In this document: one piece after another, positions 5,081 to 25,488 of the stretch
Layout of the letters: every line of letters starts with the position of its first letter
Numbering within the stretch: position 1 is the first letter of the stretch
From: an uncultured Staphylococcaceae bacterium
GTDB taxonomy: Bacteria > Bacillota_I > Bacilli_A > RFN20 > CAG-826
Direction of reading: 5' to 3'
Length of the DNA: 64,000 nt
NCBI GenBank assembly: GCA_964654155.1
Contig: CAZZGL010000002.1
Coordinates: 35,902 to 99,901, forward strand
Position numbers and translations under genes: made by a program
Notes under the pieces: model-generated
Databases searched by the model: none
The model's input: the letters and a program-made list of their open reading frames with translations, nothing else
What the model was told of the DNA's origin: nothing

Positions 5081-6106
5081 TTAAAATATAAAACAAGCAT
5101 CGCCAAAAGAAAAGAAGCGATATTTTTCCTCAATCGCATGTTTGTAAGCATCTAATATAAATTCTCTTCCCGCAAAAGCGGATACAAGCATAATTAAAGT
5201 TGATTTTGGTAAATGAAAATTAGTAATTAATCCATTAATAGCTAAAAACTTATAACCTGGATAAATAAAAATATCTGTACTTCCTGCACAAGCTCTAAAT
5301 TCACCATATTTTTGCATGACTGATTCAACCACTCTTGTAGAAGTAGTTCCAACAGCAATGATTCTTCTATTTTCTTTTTTAGCTTTATTTAAAATTGCTG
5401 CTGTTTCAGCAGTCATTATATAACTTTCCGAATGCATATGATGATCTAAAATATTGTCCACTTTTACCGGTCTAAAAGTACCTAAACCGATATGTAATGT
5501 CACTTCAACAATCGTAACACCTTTTTCAATTAATTTTTGATTCAACTCTTCAGTGAAATGAAAACCCGCTGTTGGAGCGGCAGCACTTCCTTCATATTTA
5601 GCGTACACAGTTTGATAACGAGAATTATCTTCACATTGTGCTTTTATATATGGAGGTAAAGGCATTTTTCCAAGTTTATCTAATACTTCATAAAAAACGC
5701 CTTGATAATGCATACGGAAATGTCTTATTCCTTCATCTAATACTTTAATACATTCCGCAACTAATTCACCATTACCAAAAATAATATTCGTTCCTAATTT
5801 AATAGTTTTGGCATTACCTGTTAAACATTCCCATTCATCATTTTGTAATTGTTTTAATAACAAAACTTCCACTTTTGCTCCCGTATGTTCTTTAATTCCA
5901 TATAATCTTGCAGGAATTACTTTAGTGTTATTCCTTACCAAAACATCACCAGGTTTTAAGAAATCAATTATATTATAAAATTGATGGTCTTCATAACTTT
6001 TATTTTCACGATCTATCACTAAAAGTCGAGAATGATCTCTTTTTTCACTTGGAGATTGCGCGATTAGTTCTTCTGGTAAATCAAAATCAAAATCACAAAT
6101 ATCCAT
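5081..6106 (-). CDS. queA: S-adenosylmethionine:tRNA ribosyltransferase-isomerase QueA
   Basis: [33 protein letters not shown] is the canonical QueA N-terminus. Start trimmed to the MDIC Met, which abuts the tgt stop. Confidence 0.9.
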
Positions 6107-6107
6107 C

Positions 6108-7250
<1,143 letters not shown>

Positions 7251-7309
7251 TTAAAACAATGTCTATTATAACATAATAAAAAAGCCCTTTTACTTATTTA
7301 TTCGCTTTT

Positions 7310-8602
7310 TTAATTTTCACCGTTATTGCTTAATTCAGATATTCCATCTGTTAATGTTTTCTTGCTTATTTTATTATTAGCCATCATATATCCCACTAGA
7401 AGTAAAACAATCAACAATGTTGGATCTAAATATAAAGGTAATGTATCAGCATATTCTACAAAAACATTTTGTCCATAATTTAAGTTAACATATACATAGT
7501 AATGAATCATAAATGAAAGGATCAAATTCTTTTTTAAAGAGGAATCATTTGAATTTTTGTAATATTTATAAGTAGTCATGATTGCAACAATTGTCAATCC
7601 TACCAAAATTAGAAATGCTGGTATCCCATTTTGAAATAAAGCATCTAAATATATATTTCGAGTATTCATCGTTTCTTTTAATACTTCCTTAGGTTGATTG
7701 CCTAATGGATATTTAAAAACATTTTTTAAAACGTTAATACCAACTTCAACACGAGCAATACTCTTACCTTTCCAAACAACTAAAACTATAGCAAATAAAG
7801 CAAATAATCCTATTCCTAAAAAAATATTTTTTCTTTTCTTTTTATCTTTTGGAAAATTCATAATTAAGGCTGTAATTAACATTGATAAACCAGAAACAAA
7901 AATCCCTAAAAAATATGGAATCAAAATTAAACCCACAACGCCTAAAATTCCTGATGATAACGCTATTTTTTTTAATTTTAATTCACTATCATCAACTTTT
8001 TTATATTTCCATAGAACCATAAAGCCAGAAGATAATAAAGATAATGCATAACCAAAAAAAGTCATATAAACTCGCGATTCTTTTTGAAAAGGATTAGTAC
8101 CTAAAATCCACATTTTTGAAGAAAGCATTACAGAACCAATATTTTCTTCAAGCATATATAAAAGCCCATAACTAAACAAAGTTGCAAACAATGATATTAT
8201 TCCAAAGACAAATAATGTGCCATATATTGCAATTAAATATTTACCAATATTGCTTTCTTTATCGACTCCTAATGTATATCCAATCCAAGATGCACCTAAA
8301 AAACTTAAAACTGCAGGAATAATATCAATAATGCTTATGGCATCGTTTATTGTATAATGAATAATTAAATTAGGCAGTACAGAAACGCCATATAAAAGCG
8401 AAAACGCTAAAAAAATTATAGAAGTGGAATTCAATTTCCTTACATTGCTAAAATATAAAGCTAAGCTAATTAACATTAATACTATTTCAATTATTCGAAT
8501 AATTGTCCCATATGCAAAAAAACTGACATTTAAGGCAATTACAAATTCTAAAACAAATATCAAAAATAATGATTTCAAACTATTTTTATTAATATTATCC
8601 AT
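7310..8602 (-). CDS. Polytopic membrane protein, possibly an O-antigen ligase/polymerase-like or EpsG-like cell-envelope enzyme
   Basis: About 10-12 predicted TM helices. The start sits at MDNINKN behind an AAGGAGGA RBS. The functional call is weak. Confidence 0.35.
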   Translation of the reverse strand: MDNINKNSLKSLFLIFVLEFVIALNVSFFAYGTIIRIIEIVLMLISLALYFSNVRKLNSTSIIFLAFSLLYGVSVLPNLIIHYTINDAISIIDIIPAVLSFLGASWIGYTLGVDKESNIGKYLIAIYGTLFVFGIISLFATLFSYGLLYMLEENIGSVMLSSKMWILGTNPFQKESRVYMTFFGYALSLLSSGFMVLWKYKKVDDSELKLKKIALSSGILGVVGLILIPYFLGIFVSGLSMLITALIMNFPKDKKKRKNIFLGIGLFALFAIVLVVWKGKSIARVEVGINVLKNVFKYPLGNQPKEVLKETMNTRNIYLDALFQNGIPAFLILVGLTIVAIMTTYKYYKNSNDSSLKKNLILSFMIHYYVYVNLNYGQNVFVEYADTLPLYLDPTLLIVLLLVGYMMANNKISKKTLTDGISELSNNGEN

Positions 8603-9635: not shown

Positions 9636-10736
9636 CTATTTATATCGTAAATAACGAATAAACTGTTCATTTAAAGTATATTTTCTATTACTTTTAATTT
9701 CATAATGTTCAATACATCGTGATTTACATCCTCTAATATTTTTTCCAACATAATCATTTAATGTTTGAATACATACAAATCCCTCTTTATTTTTATCTAC
9801 AACAAATATTCCTTCATTGCGATGAAATAAATCTAAAATGTTATTATTATGCATCGACAAATATAATGTTGCTCCATGAGGATTAGTATTTTGATTAATA
9901 AACATTTTTAAAAAGTTTTTTACTACTTGTAAATTAATCGAAGAATCTATTTCATCAATAATTAAAATAGAACCATTTTTTAAAGCAAAATACGCTGTCA
10001 TAAAAAGTAATACACCTTTCAAGGTTCCAAAGGATATAATATTTATCATTTCCGATAATGAAAATTTATGTACTTTCCCATATATTTTTATGAAAAAGTG
10101 CATTTTATCCTCACTAAGCTTTATACCCTCAATTAAAGGTTCAAATATATTAAATATATTTAAAAATATATTTTTATCCATCCGTTCATATAATCTAATT
10201 ATTTTTAAGATAATTTCGCCAGAAGATAATTGCATAATATGAAAAACGGACTCCTTCTGCGTGATTAATTCTTTTTCTTTTTTTAGATGATAAAAATTCC
10301 CATTATATAATGTTGTTGGATGAAATTTTTTAATCTTTTTATACCTTAAATATTGTCTTTTTACTATACAATAAGTAACTTCAAAAGACGCTTCCTTAGA
10401 AGGATAAATATTACAACGATAATTATATAAATAATCGTTTTCTGCTACAAAGATTTCTAAATCAATATTATCCTTTGCAAAATCCAATCTGTTATAGCAA
10501 ATGCGTCTATTATTTAATAATTCATATGACATTAAAATCAATGATAAAACACTTGTTTTCCCTTGTCCATTTCCACCAATGATTGAATTGCATATATTGC
10601 TATAAGTGCCTTGAAAAACATTCAATAATTCACTATCTAGCATTGCTTTTCGTGGAACTTTATCAGAAATAAAATCAATACTAAAATTATCCTTTAATTT
10701 TCTAAATCCAGACACTATAATTTTTAAAATTCTCAC
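9636..10736 (-). CDS. AAA family ATPase (ABC/SMC/RecF-like head, OLD/AAA_21-type), solitary
   Basis: N-terminal ILKIIVSGFRKL, Walker A GGNGQGKTS and Walker B ILIIDEIDSSI. It apparently starts on GTG with no SD. No adjacent partner gene. Confidence 0.6.
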   Translation of the reverse strand: MRILKIIVSGFRKLKDNFSIDFISDKVPRKAMLDSELLNVFQGTYSNICNSIIGGNGQGKTSVLSLILMSYELLNNRRICYNRLDFAKDNIDLEIFVAENDYLYNYRCNIYPSKEASFEVTYCIVKRQYLRYKKIKKFHPTTLYNGNFYHLKKEKELITQKESVFHIMQLSSGEIILKIIRLYERMDKNIFLNIFNIFEPLIEGIKLSEDKMHFFIKIYGKVHKFSLSEMINIISFGTLKGVLLFMTAYFALKNGSILIIDEIDSSINLQVVKNFLKMFINQNTNPHGATLYLSMHNNNILDLFHRNEGIFVVDKNKEGFVCIQTLNDYVGKNIRGCKSRCIEHYEIKSNRKYTLNEQFIRYLRYK

Positions 10737-14887: not shown

Positions 14888-16255
14888 ATGGCAAAAAAAA
14901 GAGATTTAAATTTAGGAGAATTTGAAGCTATATGTGAAGATATATCTTTTGATGGTAAAGGAGTAACTCATTATCAAGGAAAGGTTGTTTTTGTTCCAGG
15001 CTTTTTTCTTAATGAAAAAGCGATTATTCGCTTGGTATATGAAAGAAGCGAATTTTATGCTGGGAAAATTATTAAAATAATCGAAAAATCTCCATACAGA
15101 ATAGAACCAAAATGCAAAATATGTTCTAGTTGTGGTGGCTGTTGCTATCAACAATTAGAATATGCCTCGCAATTAGAATATAAAACTAAAAAGGTTAAAG
15201 ACGCTTTCTTTAAATTTGCCAAAATGAATGTTAATGTTGAACCTTGTATAGGAATGACAGAACCATATTTTTATCGTAATAAAATTCAAATGCCTATCGG
15301 TATATCTCAAAAAGGAAGGATTATTACTGGGTTTTATAAAGAAAAAACCCATGAAATTGTTCCTGTAGATAAATGCTATATTGAAAACGAACAAGCGGAA
15401 GAAGTTTTAAATATAATTAAAGATTTAATGAAAAAATATAAAATATTGCCTTATAACGAGGACACAAGAAAAGGCATTATTCGTCATATCTTGATAAGAA
15501 CTTCATTCCATAAAAAACAAATTATGGTTGTATTAGTAACAAATCAAGATGAATTCGGCGGAAGAAGAGAATTTGTAAAAGCTCTTCATTTAACTTGCTC
15601 ATCGATTACAACAATTGTACAAAACATTAATACCCGTGATACAAATGTCATATTAGGTGAAAAAGAACGTGTTCTGTATGGAAAAGGGTATATTGAAGAT
15701 TCATTATGTGATGTTTGGTTTCAAATATCCGCGAAATCATTTTATCAAATTAATCCTATTCAAACAGAAATTTTATATAATACCGCAATTAAGCTTGCTA
15801 ATTTAAGTGGAAATGAAACTGTTTTAGATTGTTACTGTGGAATTGGAACAATAGGTTTAATTGCTTCTAAATATGCAAAAAAAGTTATCGGTATTGAAAT
15901 TGTTAAAGAAGCCGTTTCTGACGCAATTAAAAATGCAAAAAGAAATAATATTAGCAACGAAACTTTTGTTGTCGGTGACGCAAGTGAGTATATGGTTGAA
16001 TACGCTAAATCAAAAGGAAAAGTTGATGTTTTGTTTATGGATCCACCAAGAAAAGGTTCTGATCAAAAATTTTTAAGTTCTGTATTAACTTTACTTCCTA
16101 AAAAAATCATCTATATTTCTTGTGATCCAACTACTTTAGCAAGAGACATTAAGATTCTTTCTTCTAAATATAAAATAACTAGAATTCAACCTGTGGATAT
16201 GTTTCCAATGACTTATCATGTAGAGACAATCTGTGCTTTAACATTAAATAAGTAA
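14888..16255 (+). CDS. rlmD: 23S rRNA (uracil-C5)-methyltransferase RlmD/RumA family (TRAM + Fe-S + SAM MTase)
   Basis: N-terminal TRAM domain, a CKICSSCGGCCYQQ Fe-S cluster and a C-terminal class I MTase (DCYCGIGT, MDPPRKG). Confidence 0.85.
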   Translation: MAKKRDLNLGEFEAICEDISFDGKGVTHYQGKVVFVPGFFLNEKAIIRLVYERSEFYAGKIIKIIEKSPYRIEPKCKICSSCGGCCYQQLEYASQLEYKTKKVKDAFFKFAKMNVNVEPCIGMTEPYFYRNKIQMPIGISQKGRIITGFYKEKTHEIVPVDKCYIENEQAEEVLNIIKDLMKKYKILPYNEDTRKGIIRHILIRTSFHKKQIMVVLVTNQDEFGGRREFVKALHLTCSSITTIVQNINTRDTNVILGEKERVLYGKGYIEDSLCDVWFQISAKSFYQINPIQTEILYNTAIKLANLSGNETVLDCYCGIGTIGLIASKYAKKVIGIEIVKEAVSDAIKNAKRNNISNETFVVGDASEYMVEYAKSKGKVDVLFMDPPRKGSDQKFLSSVLTLLPKKIIYISCDPTTLARDIKILSSKYKITRIQPVDMFPMTYHVETICALTLNK

Positions 16256-16444
16256 TATCGAATACGCGTTAAAATATATTTAAATTAATTATGTTTCCAA
16301 TCATAAATGATATATTTAAAAATAATAAAAATTTTATTATTTATGTTAGTTTTATAATGTAGGGGAAAAATTAGTAAGATTATAACAATCCCTTCGTTAA
16401 AGCCTTCATTCATTTTTTATGCGATTACCCTAAATAAACAATAT

Positions 16445-16501
16445 TTATTGTATTTTTTTAATTAAGCAAATGATATAATATTCACAGAAAGGCAATATTG
16501 C
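16445..16501 (+). promoter_or_regulatory. Promoter region of the defense operon: TG-extended -10 TGATATAAT (16471-16479), with the 10-bp palindrome GCAATATTGC (16492-16501) just downstream
   Basis: Seen directly. The poor -35 is offset by the extended -10. The palindrome sits at the predicted +1 to +20 region. Confidence 0.3.
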
Positions 16502-16571
16502 ATTATGGCATTTACAAATAAGAATTAATTAGCAAAAAACAAAAAAGAAATTAGTAATAAGAGGGAAAAAC

Positions 16572-17807
16572 ATGGCATTTTACACAAGAGAAGAAGCAAA
16601 GGTTAAAATAGAGACAATTTTGAAAGAACAACATCCACTTAAAACAGGCCAAACATTACCAATCAGAAGTGGAACAAAGTTTAATGTCTATTCAATTCCA
16701 GTAGAATATTTAGCCCCCAATGTTTTAAATGATAGAATAGCTTGGAGAATCAGAGAATTTGAAGCTTCAAATGGTAGAAAACTATCATTCGACTCACCAG
16801 AAGATGTTGAATATGTATACGAATTATTAGAAAAAGAATCTCCAAAAGAAAACGAAAAAACATTAAAAGATTTAGCAGAAAAAGGGCAACAAGTTGATGG
16901 CATCATAACCAAAGATGGAATTATAATTGATGGTAATAGAAGAGCTACTTTACTAAGAAAATTATTTAAAGGAGCTGCTTCAAAGTTCAATAAAAATCTA
17001 GAAGATTTTAGATTTTTTAACGCTATTGTTTTATCAGAAGACATTGATGATAAAGAAATTATGGCATTAGAAACTAGAATTCAAATTGGTGAAGACAAAA
17101 AATTAGATTATAACCCTATTTGTATGTATATTAAAGTTGATAATTTATCCGCAGCTGGATATAATGATCAACAAATTGCCAATTATATGAATATTACAGA
17201 AAGTGATGTAAAAGAAAAAAAAGAGATTTTTAGGTTGATGAATGAATATCTTGAGGCAATTGGGAAGCCTAATCATTATACATTATTAGAAGGGTTAGAA
17301 GATCAATTCATAAATACTAAAACTGTATTTAAAAGAATGGACAACAGAACATATCAAACATATGATTGGGATTACACAGCTGAAGATGTTGCAAATTTTA
17401 AACAAGTTTGCTATGACTATTTAAGAGCGAAATTTGAAGGAAAAAAATATAGGGATGTATTAATTGGAAAGTCTTTTAAAACAAATGGCGTATTTATTAA
17501 AAAAAGTGTTTGGGAAGAATTTTTTGAAAACCACGAAAAAGTAATTAATGATAATAATCCGCAAAATGAAAAAGACTGGGAAGCTCTAGGCAAAAAACAA
17601 TTTGTACAAATTTTAAAAAATGCATCTTTAAAGTTAGAAGAAGTATTAAATGAGAAAAATGTATCATCATTAGTCATAACAATTCAATCAAAAATCAGAA
17701 ATCTTATGGATTGTTTAAATGAAAATAATGAACTAACACAAGAAGACTACAAAATTTTAAAAAAAGCTAACAGTCTATTATGGGATATATTGAAGGAATA
17801 TAAATAA
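16572..17807 (+). CDS. ParB/Srx-superfamily (DUF262/GmrS-like) NTPase-domain protein, first gene of the defense operon
   Basis: The GIITKDGIIIDGNRRATLLRKL motif matches the ParB box II (GxRR) and the DUF262 (DGQQRxT) signature. No HNH/DUF1524 C-terminal domain. The stop overlaps the next gene's ATG (TAAATG). Confidence 0.55.
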   Translation: MAFYTREEAKVKIETILKEQHPLKTGQTLPIRSGTKFNVYSIPVEYLAPNVLNDRIAWRIREFEASNGRKLSFDSPEDVEYVYELLEKESPKENEKTLKDLAEKGQQVDGIITKDGIIIDGNRRATLLRKLFKGAASKFNKNLEDFRFFNAIVLSEDIDDKEIMALETRIQIGEDKKLDYNPICMYIKVDNLSAAGYNDQQIANYMNITESDVKEKKEIFRLMNEYLEAIGKPNHYTLLEGLEDQFINTKTVFKRMDNRTYQTYDWDYTAEDVANFKQVCYDYLRAKFEGKKYRDVLIGKSFKTNGVFIKKSVWEEFFENHEKVINDNNPQNEKDWEALGKKQFVQILKNASLKLEEVLNEKNVSSLVITIQSKIRNLMDCLNENNELTQEDYKILKKANSLLWDILKEYK

Positions 17808-19796
17808 ATGAACGAAGCTATTTGCAAGTTTAAAGATAATATTTTGCTTATTGCCGGTTTACCATTAGATAATCAAAGAAAAATTATGAAAATTAAGCTT
17901 TTTTTAAATCCCTATCAATTGCTTTCATATAGATTTATAGATAACACATTAGAAATAAAATTTATTATTGATGATGCAAACATTATTGTTAAAGAGATAA
18001 ATGAAATCATAAAATTTATTGAAAATGTTTTTAATATAAGTATTTTACTTGACGATAATATTAAAAAAAGTATAGATATACAAACAACCAAAGTTTTAAC
18101 TTTTAATGAAACCATAAAAAAATTAAAATCATTAAAAAATGGCTGCTTAGAAAAATCCGACGAATTTATCAAATACTGTGAATTTTCTGATCGTACTTTA
18201 AAATGTAAATTAAGGTCTTATCAGTATACTGCTTCATATTTTTTAACGATTGGTCAAGGCGGCTTTGATTTTTCTGTCCCTGGCTCCGGAAAAACCATTA
18301 TAACTTATGCTTCATATAATTATTTGAGATATAATAAAATTTGTGATTGCATTTTAATAATCGGACCTATAAATTCATTTAATGCATGGTTTGATGAATA
18401 TGAAACCTGTTTTAATAATCAACCTGATTTTATTTCTTTATCCTCTTACACAAAAAAAGATGCAGAAATATATCTACTATCATCCAAAAATTATCATAAA
18501 GAAATAACCTTTATAAACATTGATAAAGTATGGAGAATGAGAAAAGAATTAATCAATTTTATTAAGAATAAAAATATATTGCTCATAGTAGATGAAGCTC
18601 ATAAAGAAAAAAATCCAAACGCACAAATTACGAAAGCTGTTCTAGAAATAACAAAATATGCAAAATATAGAATTATTCTCACTGGTACACCTATGCCTAA
18701 TGGATACGAAGATTTATTTTCTTTAATGAAAATTTATGAGCCTTATGAAAGAATATTACCGTACAATTACAGTGAATTGGTAAAATTAACAAAAATTGGT
18801 GCAAATAAAGACCAACAAAGTAAAATTATGCAGGCTATCAAACCAATCTATTCTAGGGTATCTAAAGCATATCTATTAAATACCGGAGAATTACTTCCAC
18901 CTAATTACAGATTTATTAAATGCAAATTATCAAATGAACAAAAAGAAATTTATAATTTTTTAAACAAAATGGCATTTCAAATTGAAGACGACTTTAATTC
19001 TATTTTAAATTTGAATTTAATGAAAGCTATATTAATTAGAAAAATGCAAGTTTCTGCAAACCCTGGATTATTATCAAAAAGCATAATCAATTCAATTGAA
19101 GAATATTATGAAGAATATTATGAAGATTTCAATAAAGAAAATTCAGATAATGAAGCTTTATTAAAAGCTGATAATGATATAAAAAAAGCAATCGCAGCAT
19201 CACCAATTGCTAATTTAATATATAAATTTGAATCAGGTTATTACCAATCACAGAAAAATATAATTGCAGTAAATCTTGCCTTAGAATTAGTTTCAAAAGG
19301 GGAAAAAGTTATTATTTGGGATGTTTTTGTTCAAAATATGTATTCTATAAAAAAATTATTAAATTCTAAATCAGACATAGAAATTGAAATAATTAATGGC
19401 ACAATTAGTGGTCAAGATAGGCAAAATGCAATAAATAGATTTAAATTAGGAAACAGCATGATTTTAATTGCAAATCCAGCAACCTTAGCTGAATCAATTT
19501 CATTACATAAAGCATGTCATAACGCTATCTATGTTAATAGAAATTTTAATGCAGCACAATTTATTCAATCAAAAGATAGAATCCATAGAATAAATATGCC
19601 AAAAGAAATAACAGCAAATTATTATTTTATAATTAATGAAGATACCATTGATGAAACTATTCAAGATAGACTTGAATTAAAAGAAAATAGAATGATTAAA
19701 ATTTTAGACTCTGATGAACTTGAAATAGGTGGATCCGAGTTTGAAAATAATTCATTTATGTCTTTGGATGACATTATTTCATCCTTCAAAAAGTAG
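17808..19796 (+). CDS. SNF2-family DEAD/DEAH-box helicase/ATPase
   Basis: Motif I VPGSGKT, motif II LLIVDEAH, motif III ILTGTPMPNG and C-terminal motif VI QSKDRIHRI. Translationally coupled to the upstream ParB-like gene. Confidence 0.8.
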   Translation: MNEAICKFKDNILLIAGLPLDNQRKIMKIKLFLNPYQLLSYRFIDNTLEIKFIIDDANIIVKEINEIIKFIENVFNISILLDDNIKKSIDIQTTKVLTFNETIKKLKSLKNGCLEKSDEFIKYCEFSDRTLKCKLRSYQYTASYFLTIGQGGFDFSVPGSGKTIITYASYNYLRYNKICDCILIIGPINSFNAWFDEYETCFNNQPDFISLSSYTKKDAEIYLLSSKNYHKEITFINIDKVWRMRKELINFIKNKNILLIVDEAHKEKNPNAQITKAVLEITKYAKYRIILTGTPMPNGYEDLFSLMKIYEPYERILPYNYSELVKLTKIGANKDQQSKIMQAIKPIYSRVSKAYLLNTGELLPPNYRFIKCKLSNEQKEIYNFLNKMAFQIEDDFNSILNLNLMKAILIRKMQVSANPGLLSKSIINSIEEYYEEYYEDFNKENSDNEALLKADNDIKKAIAASPIANLIYKFESGYYQSQKNIIAVNLALELVSKGEKVIIWDVFVQNMYSIKKLLNSKSDIEIEIINGTISGQDRQNAINRFKLGNSMILIANPATLAESISLHKACHNAIYVNRNFNAAQFIQSKDRIHRINMPKEITANYYFIINEDTIDETIQDRLELKENRMIKILDSDELEIGGSEFENNSFMSLDDIISSFKK

Positions 19797-19804
19797 GTGT
19801 AACA

Positions 19805-20509
19805 ATGGAAATTAATCAAATAATTCTTTTAAACAACTTATTAAATGAAGAAATTAAAAAATACGAACTCTTTTCTACGAACGAATTAAAGGAAATGCTC
19901 GGTATTGATAAAAACTCCAAAAATCTTAATAGAGTTATTTTTAATAAAATTATTGAATCATCTATCAATAGAGATATACTATTGACATTACTCAAACAAT
20001 GCTCTTGTATTATAAAAACTGTAAATTTAGAATGGAATAATTCATTGAAAGAATCGATGTCATTAAACGTTTTTAAATATTTTGACATATGTAATGAAAT
20101 TTGGGAAAATTCTAAATTATATAAATATTTTATAGAAAATACTTTTGTTTTTGTTGTTTTTAAAAAAGATTTTAAAGGTAGCAAACTGGAAAAAATTAAA
20201 GTTTGGAAAATGCCTAAAAGTATATTAAACTCTGGAGTTAGAGAAACTTGGAGTATAACACAATCTTTAATTAAATCTGGAAAAATTATAAACTACATAG
20301 ATAAAAGAAATCGCTTTATAACATTTTTTCCAACTAGTAGCGAAACTAAATATATTCATGTTAGACCTCATGCACAAAATAGAAATGACACTCTTGAATT
20401 ACCTGTCCCTGATAAACTAACTGGTAAAACAAGATTTATGAAACATAGTTTCTGGCTAAATAGTAACTTTGTAAAGAAAATAATTGTAGAGGACAAATAT
20501 TATGAATAA
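19805..20509 (+). CDS. MutH/Sau3AI-family endonuclease, putative type II REase of a GATC-type R-M
   Basis: The C-terminal YIHVRPHAQNRNDTLELPVPDKLTGKTRFMKHSFWLNSNFV aligns with the E. coli MutH C-terminal arm ([38 protein letters not shown]). NSGVRETWS matches the MutH NSGVTWETS segment. It has a D-x6-E-x2-K candidate catalytic triad. Confidence 0.6.
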   Translation: MEINQIILLNNLLNEEIKKYELFSTNELKEMLGIDKNSKNLNRVIFNKIIESSINRDILLTLLKQCSCIIKTVNLEWNNSLKESMSLNVFKYFDICNEIWENSKLYKYFIENTFVFVVFKKDFKGSKLEKIKVWKMPKSILNSGVRETWSITQSLIKSGKIINYIDKRNRFITFFPTSSETKYIHVRPHAQNRNDTLELPVPDKLTGKTRFMKHSFWLNSNFVKKIIVEDKYYE

Positions 20510-21287
20510 TTTAAATAGACAAGAATTAACAATTATTTTAGCATATTATTTTTTTGATAGCAGAAAAACAACTATTAATACAATGAACTCTTTTAACACT
20601 AGATTTAATTTAACTTTTAAAAAAGATTTTAATACTCAAACACTAATATATTATTGCTCTTTATTTAAAAATATCGATCCTTCATTTAATGCCAAACCAA
20701 TAAATAATGAAGATTTAAGAATTAATGAACTATGGAATTATTATATTGTGCAAGATAGAATAAGTGATTTAAAAAAAATATATAATAGTTTTAAGCAAGG
20801 TCTACTAAAAAAAAGAATAATATCTATTAAAAATGAGGCTGCCGATGATATAAATGAATACATATCTAAAGAAATAAAAAATTTACATTTTACTTTTTTA
20901 GGAGATGAAGCTAAAAATTTATATAATTTGTCATCATTTTCAAGTCAATCACTTCGTGATTTAAACGTTTCCTTTAATGCTTTAAACTTAGCTAAGTTTA
21001 AATGTGAAGTAGACAATAGCCATAAAACTTTTATAAGAAAAAATATTGATATTCCATATACTGAAGGACATCATATAATACCATTGCAATACCAATATCT
21101 ATTTAAATCTAATCTTGATGTAGAGGCTAATGTCGTATCTTTATGCAGTAATTGTCATAATAATCTGCATTATGGAAAAGATTTTGAAGAATTATTAACA
21201 ATAATTTTTACAGATGAAAGAAAAAAAAGATTAGAAAAATGTGGAATAAAAATAACATTAGAAGAACTAATTTCTTTTTATAAATAA
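20502..21287 (+). CDS. HNH endonuclease-domain protein
   Basis: C-terminal EGHHIIPL...NVVSLCSNCHNNLHYG is the canonical HNH/His-Me finger with a zinc-ligand Cys pair. It overlaps the MutH-like gene by 8 nt. Confidence 0.7.
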   Translation: MNNLNRQELTIILAYYFFDSRKTTINTMNSFNTRFNLTFKKDFNTQTLIYYCSLFKNIDPSFNAKPINNEDLRINELWNYYIVQDRISDLKKIYNSFKQGLLKKRIISIKNEAADDINEYISKEIKNLHFTFLGDEAKNLYNLSSFSSQSLRDLNVSFNALNLAKFKCEVDNSHKTFIRKNIDIPYTEGHHIIPLQYQYLFKSNLDVEANVVSLCSNCHNNLHYGKDFEELLTIIFTDERKKRLEKCGIKITLEELISFYK

Positions 21288-21302
21288 AGAAAGGATTATC
21301 CA

Positions 21303-22550
21303 ATGAAAAAAACAGTAGTAGAACTATTCGCCGGTGTAGGCGGATTTAGAGTAGGATTAAATAAAATTAAAAAAATTGATAACAATGGTCAGGCTATTGA
21401 AAATAAAAAATTTAAAATTATTTGGGCAAATCAATGGGAACCATCAACTAAAGCACAACATGCCTATGAATGCTACAAACTAAGGTTTAATTGTTCAGAA
21501 GAAGAATGTTCTAATGTAGATATATCCTTAATTGATAAAAGTTCAATTCCTTCTCACACATTATTATGTGGCGGATTTCCATGTCAAGATTACTCTGTCG
21601 CAAGATCATTAAAAAACGAGAAAGGAATTGAAGGAAAAAAAGGCGTTTTATGGTGGCAAATTTATGAGGTTTTAACTATTAAAGAACCTCCGTTTGTTCT
21701 TTTAGAAAATGTTGATAGATTATTAAAATCACCTTCTAAACAAAGGGGGCAAGCTTTCGGAATTATGTTAAGATGTTTTTATGAATTGGGATATTCCGTA
21801 GAATGGCGAGTCATAAACGCCGCACAATATGGTCACCCTCAAAGAAGAAGAAGAATATTTATTTTTGCATATAAAAATACAACAAAATATAGTAAAAAAA
21901 TGGGAATGTTATCTCTACACGAAATAATAACTTCTAAGGGAATTTTTGCTAAAAAATTTCCTGTTTCAAATTTAAAATATAAAATTAAAGAAATAGATAT
22001 CAAAGATTATAAAAGCTTAATAGATGTTTCTGAAAATTTTAAATTTATTTTTGAAAATTCTGGATATATGAATAATGGCATAATATATACTTTCAATACT
22101 ATTGCAAAAGAAAATAAGCCATTCGTCTTGCGCCAAATTCTTGAGAAGAGTGTTGATGAAAATCTATTTTTATCCCATTATAAAATTAAAAAATTTTCTT
22201 ATTTAAGAAATTCTAAAAAAATATTAAGAACTAGAAAAGAGGATGGCGGGACTTATTATTATTCCGAAGGAGCAATGGCGCCATATGATTCTTTAGATTT
22301 ACCTGGTAGAACTATGCTTACGAGTGAAGGAACAGTTAATAGGAGTTCTCATATAATAAAAGATCCTAATGAAAACAAACTAAGATTTTTATCTCCTATC
22401 GAATGTGAAAGATTGAATCAATTTCCCGATAATTGGACATCAACCATGTGCAATAGGAAAAGATATTTTATGATGGGAAACGCTCTTGTTTGTGGAATTG
22501 TATCAAAACTAGGTAATGAAATTTACAATATTATTAGAGAAGAAGATTAA
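21303..22550 (+). CDS. DNA (cytosine-5)-methyltransferase
   Basis: Motif I ELFAGVGGF, motif IV GGFPCQDYS, motif VI LLENV, motif VIII QRRRRIFIFAY and motif X MGNALV. Confidence 0.9.
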   Translation: MKKTVVELFAGVGGFRVGLNKIKKIDNNGQAIENKKFKIIWANQWEPSTKAQHAYECYKLRFNCSEEECSNVDISLIDKSSIPSHTLLCGGFPCQDYSVARSLKNEKGIEGKKGVLWWQIYEVLTIKEPPFVLLENVDRLLKSPSKQRGQAFGIMLRCFYELGYSVEWRVINAAQYGHPQRRRRIFIFAYKNTTKYSKKMGMLSLHEIITSKGIFAKKFPVSNLKYKIKEIDIKDYKSLIDVSENFKFIFENSGYMNNGIIYTFNTIAKENKPFVLRQILEKSVDENLFLSHYKIKKFSYLRNSKKILRTRKEDGGTYYYSEGAMAPYDSLDLPGRTMLTSEGTVNRSSHIIKDPNENKLRFLSPIECERLNQFPDNWTSTMCNRKRYFMMGNALVCGIVSKLGNEIYNIIREED

Positions 22551-22613
22551 TGTAAAAACAAATTAAATGCTCAATTAAATAATTAAACAAAAAACTAATT
22601 ACCACATTATATT

Positions 22614-22637
22614 AGGCGCTTTAAGCGCTCTTTTTTA
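22614..22637 (+). terminator. Rho-independent terminator after the MTase gene
   Basis: GGCGCT-TTA-AGCGCT stem followed by CTTTTTT. Confidence 0.5.
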
Positions 22638-22731
22638 TACTAAAATATTTGCTTTTCCAAAATTCACTAAAATATATCCCGATTTACAATAGCTTTTCTT
22701 TTTTTCTTAATTATTCTGAGAAACTATCGCT

Positions 22732-22786
22732 GTAATCTGTAAATCCTAAATATTTAGATTACATTCTTTTATTCAAATGATATAAT
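22732..22786 (+). promoter_or_regulatory. Nested palindromic operator GTAATCTgtaaatcCTAAATATTTAGATTACat overlapping the -35 of a TGATATAAT promoter for the PLD-nuclease gene
   Basis: Outer arms GTAATCT/AGATTAC and inner 12-bp perfect palindrome CTAAATATTTAG. The TG-extended -10 is at 22778-22786, 25 nt before the ATG and an AAGGAGAG RBS. Confidence 0.45.
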
Positions 22787-22810
22787 CAAAAACATAAGGA
22801 GAGTTAACTT

Positions 22811-23596
22811 ATGATTAAAACAATTAAAACACCATCCGATAATACTTTTTATACACTTATAAAAGAAGCAAAAAATAGTATATATTTATGTGCTCCTTAT
22901 ATCAAAAAAGATATTGTAGATAAAATTTTATTTCATAAAAAGCAAGGTATCGAAATGATAGTTATAACATCATCAAATATATCAAATTTTATAAATGGCT
23001 CATTAGATGCTTCTGCAATAAAAGAACTGATAAAAAATGATGTTGTTGTTAGAAATTATCAAAAACTACATGCAAAAATTTATATTTTTGATAAAAAGAA
23101 AGCACTTATTACTTCTGCAAATCTAACAAATAACGGATTGTATAATAATTTTGAATATGGAGTGTTAATTGATGATGATACAATAACAGATAAAGTATAT
23201 GAAGATTATATTCAAATGATTAACGACGATCAATGTGGCACTTTTAATGATGCTTTATTAAATAGAGTTTCTAAGATTAAAATTAAGAAAAAGCCCATTA
23301 TTAATATAGATAATGATCACGACGCTATTATTATTGAAAATATTAATAATCTAATTAAAACTATGACTTCTTGGCAAAAAGATGTCTTTTTAATCTTAAA
23401 TCAAATGGCAAATGAATACTTCACAACTTCGGATATCTATTCATACTCTAATGAATTAAAAGCAAAACATCCTCATAACAATCATATAATAGAAAAAATA
23501 AGACAAATATTACAACAATTACGAGATATGGGATTTATTAAATTTCTTGATCGAGGAACTTATAAAAAATTGTGGATTGATAAAAACAAATTTTAA
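22811..23596 (+). CDS. Phospholipase-D-family (HKD) nuclease with a C-terminal winged-helix-like domain
   Basis: Single HKD motif LHAKIYIFDKKKALITSANLTNNG, as in Nuc/BfiI/NgoFVII-type nucleases that dimerise. The C-terminal ~90 aa are predicted helical and wHTH-like. Confidence 0.7.
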   Translation: MIKTIKTPSDNTFYTLIKEAKNSIYLCAPYIKKDIVDKILFHKKQGIEMIVITSSNISNFINGSLDASAIKELIKNDVVVRNYQKLHAKIYIFDKKKALITSANLTNNGLYNNFEYGVLIDDDTITDKVYEDYIQMINDDQCGTFNDALLNRVSKIKIKKKPIINIDNDHDAIIIENINNLIKTMTSWQKDVFLILNQMANEYFTTSDIYSYSNELKAKHPHNNHIIEKIRQILQQLRDMGFIKFLDRGTYKKLWIDKNKF

Positions 23597-23644
23597 TTAT
23601 TTCTCCCTATCTGTAATTAAATAAACAACAATACTTAAATTACA

Positions 23645-23692
23645 AAGAGTTATTAACATGAAATTTAATTCATTTAATTAACTCTTTTTTTA
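23645..23692 (+). terminator. Rho-independent terminator of the PLD-nuclease gene
   Basis: AAGAGTTATTAA...TTAATTAACTCTT long imperfect stem followed by TTTTTTT. Confidence 0.5.
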
Positions 23693-23955
23693 TTTGATAG
23701 CTATGACGATATAAAATTGAATTGCACTTCATATAACTAAATTATTTATCAATAATAATTCTAAGTTTATTAATATTATAATTCATAATTTATGAACTAT
23801 TTTTTATTAAAAATCAGTTATTAAATTATTATTTAATATATATTTATATATATTAATTTTAAAAAAAATTATGAACAAAAAAATTCATGACATTGCTAAT
23901 TTTTATTACAAATAATACGATTTATAATTTTGTTGTAATCAAGGAGTGATGAAAG

Positions 23956-25278
23956 ATGAATAAAACAAAAATAGACTTAGATTCAATTTATGGATATGCC
24001 TGTGAAAAAGAAAAGCTAAAAAAAATCATTGATGAATTAAATAAAATTAAAACAGATAATACAAAGACAACTATTTATAAATCTGTTATTTTTTGTGGTC
24101 CAAAAGGTAATGGAAAGCACTTATTCGCGCAAGTGTTAGAGAATGAAACCAATTGTCCTCTTTATGAATTATCTCTTAATGATAATTGTGATGAAGATTT
24201 TATCACAAATGTTTTTTCTGAGGCAGCGGATAATAAACCATCAATTATAGTTATTGACGGAATTGATAATCTTATCAAAAGTAATCTCTTAGATAATAAA
24301 AAACATAAAGCGTTATTTACATTAACTAATTTATTATTATATAAAAATAACAATGGTATCATGACCATTTTAAACACAGATAATTTAGATTCTCTACCAA
24401 AAATTTACCTTGGTAATAATAAAAATAAACCCGTTATCAATTTAAATAACCCTTCTTTAAAATCAAGATATAATATAATATCAAAATATATTGCTCAAAC
24501 TACTTTTAGTTTTGAACCTAAGGTTAGTTTTATGGCGAAAGCCACAAAAGATTTTTCTGTTGAAGAAATATTAGTCTTACTTGATACTTGTATGACATTT
24601 TCTTCAAAAGATAACATCGTTTCTATAAAAGTATTTATTGAACAACTTAACAATATAAAATCATTTAATTTTATTATTGAAAGTGACTATAAAAAAGATT
24701 ACGCAATTGCAATTCAAGAACTAGGCAAATTATTTGTAGCGCGCCACTTTAAAAAGGGAATATACGAAATAAACATCGATAGAAACGAACCTTCTTCAGG
24801 AAGCATTTTTAATAATGATATTTTAAATGAAATAGGACCTTGTAAAGATGAATATGATGATTATTATGAAACTCGCCTTAATTCCGTTTTATTCTTTTCA
24901 AGAGATGATTTTGAGAAAATAATAATGGCTAATATAGGTAAAGAAATAGCTTCTGATTTAATATTGAATAACAATTATTCAAACCTTTATTATGACCATT
25001 TAGATCTTTATAGCAAAATTAAATATGCAGTAACTAATGGATTGTATGGAATTAAATTCGCAAATGATTATAGCTACGATTTTAATACCTTAAGAGGAAG
25101 AAAAACTGAAGAAAAAATAGATCAAGTAATTAATGATTTATATGAAAGAACTGAAAAAATTGTAAAAGAATATCTCCCCTTAATAACCACACTTGCCAAT
25201 TTATTAGTTAAAAAAAGACAAATGGATGATAAGGAAATAGAACCAATTATCATTGATTGGTTTAAAAATAATCAATAG
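23956..25278 (+). CDS. AAA+ ATPase with an unknown C-terminal domain
   Basis: Walker A VIFCGPKGNGKH and Walker B PSIIVIDGIDNL. The N-terminal IYGYACEKEKLKKI resembles AAA substrate-recognition lids. The C-terminal ~200 aa have no recognised motif. Confidence 0.65.
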   Translation: MNKTKIDLDSIYGYACEKEKLKKIIDELNKIKTDNTKTTIYKSVIFCGPKGNGKHLFAQVLENETNCPLYELSLNDNCDEDFITNVFSEAADNKPSIIVIDGIDNLIKSNLLDNKKHKALFTLTNLLLYKNNNGIMTILNTDNLDSLPKIYLGNNKNKPVINLNNPSLKSRYNIISKYIAQTTFSFEPKVSFMAKATKDFSVEEILVLLDTCMTFSSKDNIVSIKVFIEQLNNIKSFNFIIESDYKKDYAIAIQELGKLFVARHFKKGIYEINIDRNEPSSGSIFNNDILNEIGPCKDEYDDYYETRLNSVLFFSRDDFEKIIMANIGKEIASDLILNNNYSNLYYDHLDLYSKIKYAVTNGLYGIKFANDYSYDFNTLRGRKTEEKIDQVINDLYERTEKIVKEYLPLITTLANLLVKKRQMDDKEIEPIIIDWFKNNQ

Positions 25279-25290
25279 GAGGTATATAAC

Positions 25291-25488
25291 ATGGATTTAG
25301 AAAACTTATCAATATTGCTACACTATGCCTTTATTTTAAGTTGTGCGATACTTGCTTTATATTTAACTATTAAAATATTTACACAAAAAAGAGTTTCAAT
25401 AGGTTTTTGTCTATTTTTTCTATTTGTTGGTGCATTCTCATTTTTTGGCGAATCCGAACTAAATAGTGTAACAAATAATCATGATTAA
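25291..25488 (+). CDS. Small two-TM membrane protein; the ORF ends at an in-frame TAA and an in-frame open frame continues after it
   Basis: GGAGG RBS and two hydrophobic helices. See the pseudogene entry 25489-25760. Confidence 0.4.
   Translation: MDLENLSILLHYAFILSCAILALYLTIKIFTQKRVSIGFCLFFLFVGAFSFFGESELNSVTNNHD

Follow-up and report, generated by a model that had tools for sequence, protein, structure and literature searches.

The locus described here raises the question of which protein in a Sau3AI-like gene cluster recognises DNA, which one cuts it, and how far the cluster extends. It lies in a 64,000-nucleotide stretch (the window) of contig CAZZGL010000002.1, positions 35,902 to 99,901, from an uncultured Staphylococcaceae bacterium (assembly GCA_964654155.1). 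A preliminary description of the window had picked out positions 19805-22550 as a Sau3AI-type restriction-modification (R-M) system in which the genes for a MutH-like nuclease and a C5-cytosine DNA methyltransferase (MTase) are split by an overlapping HNH nuclease gene. We find that these three genes are the 3' half of a five-gene operon (16572-22550) that encodes, in order, a ParB-like protein, an SNF2 ATPase, a 234-residue reader, an HNH protein and a C5-methylase. Judging from sequence relationships, we lean by a modest degree towards the view that this operon specifies a multi-subunit, modular, nucleoside triphosphate (NTP)-dependent R-M system directed at GATC.

All five genes lie on the forward strand, in a region whose G+C content (~25%) is the same as that of the rest of the window. 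The first (16572..17807) encodes a 411-residue ParB/Srx-fold protein, and its stop codon (17807) directly abuts the start codon (17808) of the second (17808..19796), which encodes a 662-residue SNF2-family ATPase/translocase with PF00176 and Helicase_C domains. A gap of 8 nt leads to the gene for the 234-residue protein (19805..20509), a standalone homologue of the Sau3AI C-terminal effector domain and predicted GATC reader. This gene overlaps that for the 261-residue McrA-type HNH protein (20502..21287) by 8 nt, with the sequence ATGAATAA, and contains a GAGGA Shine-Dalgarno sequence 8 nt 5' of the HNH start codon. The 415-residue C5-MTase of Sau3AI-partner type follows at 21303..22550. About 65 nt past its stop codon, a forward-strand hairpin with a T-run (22615..22638) is the sole terminator-like site found when both strands of 16000-24200 were scanned, and it is the probable end of the operon. 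The three reading frames first reported, their coordinates and their 8-nt overlap are exact and the genes are real; the unit drawn around them was too small, as the conserved module comprises five genes.

The 234-residue protein had been described as aligning along its full length with E. coli MutH, but only the effector half of Sau3AI gives a real match. It aligns with Sau3AI residues 259-505, the C-terminal effector domain (PDB 4pxg; E 2e-17), and also with the Sau3AI entries 2reu and 7xm0 (E about 1e-17), while the catalytic N-domain of Sau3AI gives 9 bits only. The NCBIfam model NF040973, which expects two tandem MutH-like domains in ~450-510 residues, has a cutoff of 300 bits; the half-length protein reaches 130, matches no more of the model than positions 241-474 of 475, and falls outside that family. 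It also falls outside the MutH family, as it has no active DEK site and gives no match to Pfam MutH (PF02976) at E<=0.01. When about 70 full-length Sau3AI-like enzymes (452-513 residues) recovered from genomes were scored with a profile of the 234-residue family, most C-halves (>60 of ~70) gave 180-274 bits and those of two full-length copies from an Erysipelotrichaceae locus gave 120-131 bits; the N-halves gave <=25 bits. In Sau3AI the intact catalytic centre is in the N-domain only, and the C-terminal domain is a non-catalytic, GATC-binding effector (PMC5766183; bioRxiv 10.64898/2026.04.21.719898).

The same division is seen in an alignment of ten N-halves, ten C-halves and ten standalone proteins with E. 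coli MutH. In the MutH sequence used, the numbering of D70, E77 and K79 is in agreement. N-halves retain MutH E56, D70 and E77-x-K79 (as ..E.., PDF and (I/V)ELK); C-halves and standalone proteins retain the lysine only, within xx(I/V/L)KT. Across 22 standalone family members no acidic residue is conserved at the positions of E56, D70 or E77, and the E77 position is occupied by Ile, Val, Leu or Phe. The lysine, K71 in the window protein, is the equivalent of MutH K79. Invariant within the family are K71-T72, KESMS (82-86), HVRPHA (185-190) and K-x-x-FWLN, all common to the Sau3AI C-terminal domain and partly to MutH, which has IRPKA in place of HVRPHA. Since these motifs are invariant, the protein is under selection, presumably for DNA recognition. 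The block NSGVRETWS (residues 142-150), earlier equated with NSGVTWETS of MutH, is out of register; the MutH block aligns with residues ~96-103 (CNEIWENS).

These observations bear directly on the preliminary description, which makes the 234-residue protein a MutH-like enzyme that cuts at GATC, and the HNH protein another nuclease, or a nicking partner, served by the same MTase. The 234-residue protein does share its fold family with MutH and Sau3AI, weak precomputed PF02976 matches exist for some homologues, and both K71 and the RP(H/K)A loop are conserved. With the three acidic residues absent and the match confined to the effector half, however, we regard an active nuclease here as hardly tenable. 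The preliminary description had itself named the lack of D..E.K residues in a proper alignment as telling against it, and none is found in the structural-family alignment, so that the notion of two nucleases sharing one MTase is wrong here. Because it lacks equivalents of E56, D70 and E77 and is homologous to the Sau3AI effector domain, whose GATC-binding region it appears to retain, the 234-residue protein is predicted to be a non-catalytic GATC reader.

The capacity to cut would then have to come from elsewhere, and the HNH protein is, to judge from its residues, the only conventional DNA nuclease with an intact catalytic site in the operon. It consists of a private N-terminal helical domain (about residues 1-100), a linker and a McrA-type HNH domain (about 150-261). 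PF01844 matches at 26.6 bits (cutoff 21.4), and EcoKMcrA (6ghc) is matched both in sequence (1.3e-8) and in fold (3.5e-5). In 27 homologues (34-71% identity) H190, H191, N210, H219, H223, C168, C215 and C218 are invariant, which gives the His/Asn/His catalytic set of a ββα-Me finger and the zinc-binding cysteines of the McrA type. Residues 1-100 are confidently predicted as a helical bundle, mostly with high pLDDT (predicted local distance difference test), and residues 1-140 gave no Pfam, PDB or fold match. A hidden Markov model (HMM) of this N-terminal domain matches its own family only, at module loci and at one further locus, L055. The modified-cytosine reader domain of type IV McrA-like enzymes is lacking, as only the HNH part aligns to McrA. 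That part shares 50-60% identity with the modules that type IV enzymes use for cutting and carry fused to SRA or MrcB_N domains, and can thus be regarded as a portable nuclease cassette; its only PADLOC match is mREase_IV PDLC03656.

The methylase is unambiguous at the family level. PF00145 matches at 1.3e-62 (212.6 bits), TIGR00675 at 235 bits (cutoff 100.65) and the PADLOC MTase_II model PDLC03329 at 1e-163, and the motifs FAGVGG (9; I), PCQ (93; IV), ENV (135; VI), QRRRR (180; VIII) and GNA (392; X) are present. Over residues 1-415, variable region included, it is 45-62% identical to MTases that adjoin full-length Sau3AI homologues at >60 loci, which makes it an MTase of Sau3AI-partner type, with GAT(5mC) as predicted product. 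GATC occurs 109 times in the window against 183±14 in shuffled sequence (Markov observed/expected, O/E, 0.56), a depletion consistent with GATC restriction pressure. Several claims of the preliminary description hold up well: the C5-MTase, the GATC-centred, Sau3AI-related R-M context, the Cys-containing HNH finger, and the HNH gene as a coding one, conserved in relatives and tightly coupled to the gene upstream.

The 411-residue protein had been taken for a DUF262 protein, with the HNH protein as its possible GmrD-like partner. That identity was rejected: no PF03235 or PF07510 match was obtained even at E<=10. The HNH protein is likewise of McrA type and not DUF1524, so the pairing of DUF262 with DUF1524 that defines GmrSD is absent. 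No Pfam, NCBIfam or specific PADLOC family covers the 411-residue protein, and none of the 120 homologues listed for it has a precomputed Pfam domain. Its AlphaFold2 (AF2) model (pLDDT 85.8) has KorB, Spo0J, ParB and Noc as top Foldseek matches (probability 1.0, E 6e-3 to 3e-2), and in this model the protein is built as a ParB N-domain, a helix-turn-helix (HTH) and a helical C-terminus. The modelled N-domain fold, together with a GxxR nucleotide-pocket motif, places it in the ParB/Srx superfamily. Relatives of 28-57% identity share three invariant blocks, PN..N.R (49-55), DGNRRA (120-125) and LET..Q.G.D (166-175), the middle one in full being Q..G..T.DG-x4-GNRR; we take these to resemble boxes I-III of cytidine triphosphate binding in ParB. 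Sub-threshold ddrB-ParB matches fall at the GNRR region in five family members. The family is large, with 142, 669 and 1360 representatives (50% identity) at E<=1e-30, 1e-10 and 1e-3. Its constant partner is the SNF2 gene, always immediately 3' of the ParB-like gene even at 30-34% identity; in the window the SNF2 protein (PF00176 at 4e-24, Helicase_C at 1e-9) has intact GSGKT (159), DEAH (262), TGTP (292) and QSKDRIHR (587) motifs.

The five genes recur together. The order ParB-like, SNF2, reader, HNH, joined by an MTase that is a direct neighbour or at most a few kb away, is found at 36%-81% identity in other uncultured Bacilli (our loci L002, L006 and L111), a Prevotella metagenome-assembled genome (L007), Clostridia (L008), Ruminococcaceae YRB3002 (L001/L009), Erysipelotrichaceae (L010), Lachnospiraceae (L011), Ca. 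Scatosoma (L012) and further metagenome contigs (L109, L110). In no informative locus (about 14 independent ones, from several phyla) was a standalone reader found without the ParB-like and SNF2 genes. A complete, full-length Sau3AI gene stands beside the MTase in L001, L008, L010, L011 and L109, so the module often shares its methylase with a classical Sau3AI; in the window it does not. Genes near module loci are defence genes, including CBASS Cap4, TIR, type IV Mrr and PLD-DpnI_C.

Two of these contexts deserve separate mention. In L111 the module occupies the same insertion site as in the window, 3' of a RumA-like U5-methyltransferase gene (flank 70% identical in nucleotides), and is intact apart from an SNF2 gene (6008-7989) split into frames of 459 and 160 residues, either a frameshifted, decaying copy or an assembly error. 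The Clostridia-type contigs L109 (9442-12606), L110 (9473-14148) and L001 (1-253) carry Vsr together with a type IV enzyme made of AspBHI_N and Mrr_cat. Vsr is a T:G mismatch endonuclease and is expected beside a C5-MTase; the 5mC-dependent type IV enzyme is a curious neighbour for a system that produces 5mC.

The ParB-like/SNF2 pair also occurs with other partners. Distant ParB-like homologues (33-39% identity) were found in 21 IMG/VR contigs, each followed by SNF2 (30-34% identity) wherever sequence is available. The order in these sister cassettes is a ~309-residue BanI/DpnII-like protein, ParB-like, SNF2, a ~311-residue NOV_C protein (PD-(D/E)XK-type) and a methylase. The BanI/DpnII-like gene is present in 19/21 and the NOV_C gene in 17/21; the C5-methylase, present wherever flanks suffice, is of a different type, about 30% identical to that of the window and alignable only in its catalytic half. 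Genes 0001-0005 of Streptococcus phage Javan191 (MK448700.1 1-6607, L106) are an annotated example, labelled hypothetical, hypothetical, SNF2 family helicase, hypothetical and DNA-cytosine methyltransferase. Sister cassettes (L106, L085-L105) sit at the very end of streptococcal and other prophages, often beside an HTH_3 and ImmA/IrrE pair, and every gene in them other than those for the helicase and the MTase carries the label hypothetical. PADLOC 2.0 has no model for the ParB-like protein of either cassette. A common docking domain in the N-termini of the HNH and NOV_C proteins was considered and rejected (hhalign probability <1%).

Further combinations occur. The nuclease slot holds NOV_C in L085-L105, Javan191 and L020, the last with a full-length Sau3AI; L055 combines a full-length Sau3AI with HNH; and L029, L082 and L096 have a full-length Sau3AI and methylase with the pair and no extra nuclease. 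In L108 a standalone reader accompanies SNF2, a ParB-like protein (hhalign 98% to the family) and a 619-residue protein of unassigned type, which was tried as an HNH-family homologue and rejected (hhalign probability 0.1%). With such varied readers and nucleases beside it, the ParB-like/SNF2 pair is the constant core, around which the reader and nuclease slots are exchangeable. Reader and methylase change together: the methylases that accompany Sau3AI-type readers are 45-72% identical to that of the window along their whole length, and the BanI/DpnII-like cassette pairs with the other C5-MTase type, a pattern to be expected of a reader that chooses the target and a methylase that shields it. 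A neighbour-joining (NJ) tree built from C-domains groups the 14 HNH-linked standalone readers in a single clade that is free of full-length members, and places the L108 reader among full-length enzymes. This suggests that the catalytic domain was lost twice, both times in the company of ParB-like and SNF2 proteins.

Two outlying relatives were noted. On E. faecalis plasmid pQZ076-2 (NZ_CP098027.1, L107) and 58 other plasmids, mostly conjugative or mobilizable ones of Enterococcus, a 405-residue ParB-like homologue (32% identity, with a sub-threshold ddrB-ParB match) is followed 3' by a DEAD/DEAH helicase and preceded 5' by an 864-residue protein with a sigma-70 region-4 HTH; no methylase is listed near such genes in the PLSDB gene table, which is incomplete. 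In a classical Sau3AI/MTase locus on an Acholeplasmataceae chromosome, L031, a 248-residue Sau3AI-C-like reading frame (9851-10597) is probably a frameshifted full-length gene and not a true standalone reader.

An alternative is two adjacent, independent systems, in which reader, HNH protein and MTase make a self-contained, two-subunit, type II-like GATC enzyme, and the ParB-like/SNF2 pair is a separate defence or DNA-transaction module with a tendency to insert beside C5-MTases. The ParB-like family (669 representatives at E<=1e-10; 492 clusters) is far larger than the reader family (69 clusters), and the pair also stands beside Sau3AI R-M pairs that are complete and can do without it (L029, L082, L096) and, on the E. 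faecalis plasmids, away from any listed MTase. Defence genes, moreover, cluster in islands anyway, as in L002, L109 and L110. We nevertheless consider this arrangement unlikely, as at every standalone reader locus the ParB-like and SNF2 genes lie in the same orientation and abut. In addition, the sole terminator-like site of the window lies after the MTase, a C5-MTase accompanies the pair even at 30-38% identity, and the two apparent, independent losses of the catalytic domain occurred only in its company.

On the reading that we favour, the five products act as one system, whose functional steps are inferred from homology, fold and gene context. The methylase would mark host GATC as GAT(5mC). 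The 234-residue protein, its nuclease centre lost, would bind GATC on incoming DNA where it is unmethylated, in the manner of the Sau3AI effector domain, and would recruit or license the HNH protein through the private N-terminal domain of the latter, a step suggested by the overlapping genes and their strict co-occurrence. The ParB-like NTP switch and the SNF2 motor may load on to DNA and translocate along it, so that cleavage would depend on NTP hydrolysis and probably on communication between sites. Sau3AI itself requires a pair of GATC sites and forms DNA loops; by analogy, a natural reading of the operon would be that a motor drives the same kind of communication between sites.

A number of points weigh against this picture. 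The GATC specificity proposed for reader and MTase rests on homology and association, and the depletion of GATC in the window is not unique, since GGCC (Markov O/E 0.28), ACGT (0.45) and CATG (0.59) are equally or more depleted; several depleted 4-bp palindromes suggest pressure from several restriction systems and not from a GATC one alone. The match to the ParB fold is moderate (Foldseek E about 6e-3, TM score about 0.5 on the target), and ParB-like proteins in Dpd and Dnd belong to the modification side or are regulators, so that the role here could differ. No fusion of reader and HNH was found among the homologue matches; in a search for one as a Rosetta stone, the longer HNH matches carried MrcB_N or unassigned N-termini and the reader HMM matched none of them. 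The C-domain tree has no support values (no bootstrap), and the context sample of about 14 module loci and 21 sister loci is no census.

The non-catalytic nature of the 234-residue protein also admits the view that it is a controller, a GATC-binding regulator of transcription or activity that delays or limits the HNH protein in the manner of a C-protein. It is a DNA-binding domain without catalysis, and the small C-protein-like HTH gene upstream of the module in L111 was sought in the window and is absent. We judge the controller role very improbable, because the gene is translationally coupled to that for HNH, the type of reader varies strictly with the type of MTase, and a derivative of a BanI/DpnII-like restriction endonuclease takes the equivalent role in the sister cassette.

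A different purpose altogether would be served if the ParB-like, SNF2, reader and HNH proteins acted for the mobile element that carries them, in addiction or exclusion, in partition-linked DNA processing, or in methyl-directed nicking for repair or recombination, like MutH with its clamp partner. Sister cassettes are indeed carried at the ends of prophages and by plasmids that are mobilizable or conjugative, the classical role of ParB-fold proteins is that of a partition clamp, Vsr adjoins the module in L001, L109 and L110, and the activation of MutH in trans by the MutL clamp (bioRxiv 10.64898/2026.04.21.719898) counts on the same side. Such a role is nonetheless decidedly improbable: the loci examined showed neither ParA nor a parS-type partner, a cognate MTase and a nuclease slot are hallmarks of R-M, the neighbours are defence genes, and the window holds a chromosomal copy of the module and shows no integrase.

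If the five genes do form one GATC R-M system, they resemble several characterised systems in part and match none. Like Sau3AI and M.Sau3AI (type IIE), the operon has a homologue of the effector domain and an MTase of the partner type. Unlike Sau3AI, its 234-residue protein is half-length, lacks the catalytic N-domain and fails to reach the family cutoff; a separate protein, HNH, must do the cutting; and two extra NTPase-type genes are obligatorily linked. The nearest characterised functional analogues are CglI and NgoAVII, which likewise combine a C5-MTase with separate recognition/nuclease and helicase-like ATPase proteins and couple a type II-like site reader to NTP-driven translocation, a coupling that is inferred here (PMC4267653, PMC5737866, PMC5861437). 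No restriction-subunit family is in common, however; the likeness is architectural only, and the window operon is not a member of that group. With EcoKMcrA and other type IV HNH enzymes (6ghc; ScoMcrA, 5zmm) it shares an HNH domain of the same type, but the window protein has no modified-base reader domain and its N-domain is private to the module. Its co-transcription with a methylase that makes 5mC speaks against the HNH protein being a 5mC-dependent cutter.

At the superfamily level only, the ParB/Srx-fold NTP-binding and helical DNA-binding domains recall GmrSD, BrxU and SspE (DUF262), Menshen NsnA (PMC12065111), DpdB and DndB, proteins that are also teamed with an ATPase and a nuclease in defence-type operons. 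The 411-residue protein nonetheless has no DUF262 or PADLOC NsnA, SspE or GmrSD match, and the fold search prefers ParB, KorB and Noc. In the window, moreover, the ATPase is SNF2 and not ABC, and the operon carries its own MTase. It is not a Menshen (NsnABC) system, which consists of a ParB-DUF262 protein (NsnA), an ABC ATPase (NsnB) and an inPIN effector (NsnC), as none of seven proteins tested had a PADLOC Nsn match and the ATPase is of SNF2 type. DISARM, Zorya and Dpd were considered for the weak ZorD, DpdE and DrmD matches of the SNF2 protein and for the C5-MTase and PLD genes nearby, and were rejected as generic SNF2/PLD/MTase similarity far below cutoffs. The helicase DrmA and the DUF1998 protein DrmB, which with DrmC make up the DISARM core, have no PADLOC match, ZorABC and Dpd genes are missing, DrmD and DrmC reach 34 bits against 610 and 57.8 against 133, and the PLD gene is not conserved with the module.

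That PLD gene (22811-23596, forward strand) follows the operon and encodes a 261-residue fusion of an N-terminal PLD/HKD nuclease (PLDc_2 at 8.7e-21, NgoFVII-like) with a DpnI C-terminal winged-helix (DpnI_C at 5e-25; PDB 4esj residues 189-257 at 3e-9). The DpnI winged-helix binds G(6mA)TC, and the fusion protein, whose gene has a promoter-like site to itself, probably acts as a nuclease that depends on Dam methylation. As a candidate part of the module the gene was set aside, since it is not syntenic in any other locus. Together, it and the neighbouring operon would target both unmethylated and adenine-methylated GATC. Beyond it (23956-25488, forward strand) lie genes for a 440-residue AAA ATPase that is FtsH-like but lacks a protease domain (weak matches to PADLOC IetA, 4e-6) and for a 65-residue hydrophobic protein, which may be another defence gene pair of the same island.

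Taken across both cassettes, we put forward tentatively, as a possibility well short of a probability, that these loci represent an undescribed R-M class. A ParB-fold, NTP-dependent clamp or switch and an SNF2 translocase would be constant, 'retired' non-catalytic type II enzymes (Sau3AI-C-like here, BanI/DpnII-like elsewhere) would choose the target, and plug-in nucleases (HNH, NOV_C and others) would cut it. No description of an architecture of ParB-like and SNF2 proteins with HNH, MutH or Sau3AI was found in the open-access PMC and bioRxiv literature searched. Loci of this kind, Javan191 among them, are now annotated 'hypothetical / SNF2 helicase / hypothetical / methyltransferase' and are missed by defence finders of the PADLOC 2.0 generation. 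If the proposal is true, the restriction toolkit would gain a widespread family that lacks both annotation and a Pfam model (669 ParB-like representatives at E<=1e-10), and the system would illustrate how a type IIE enzyme can be taken apart, leaving a reader that passes the cutting on to a different nuclease. It would also be the first case of a ParB-type clamp as a restriction subunit, a trans-acting parallel to the way MutL activates MutH, and would offer a tractable system for studying the roles of ParB-fold NTPases outside chromosome segregation.

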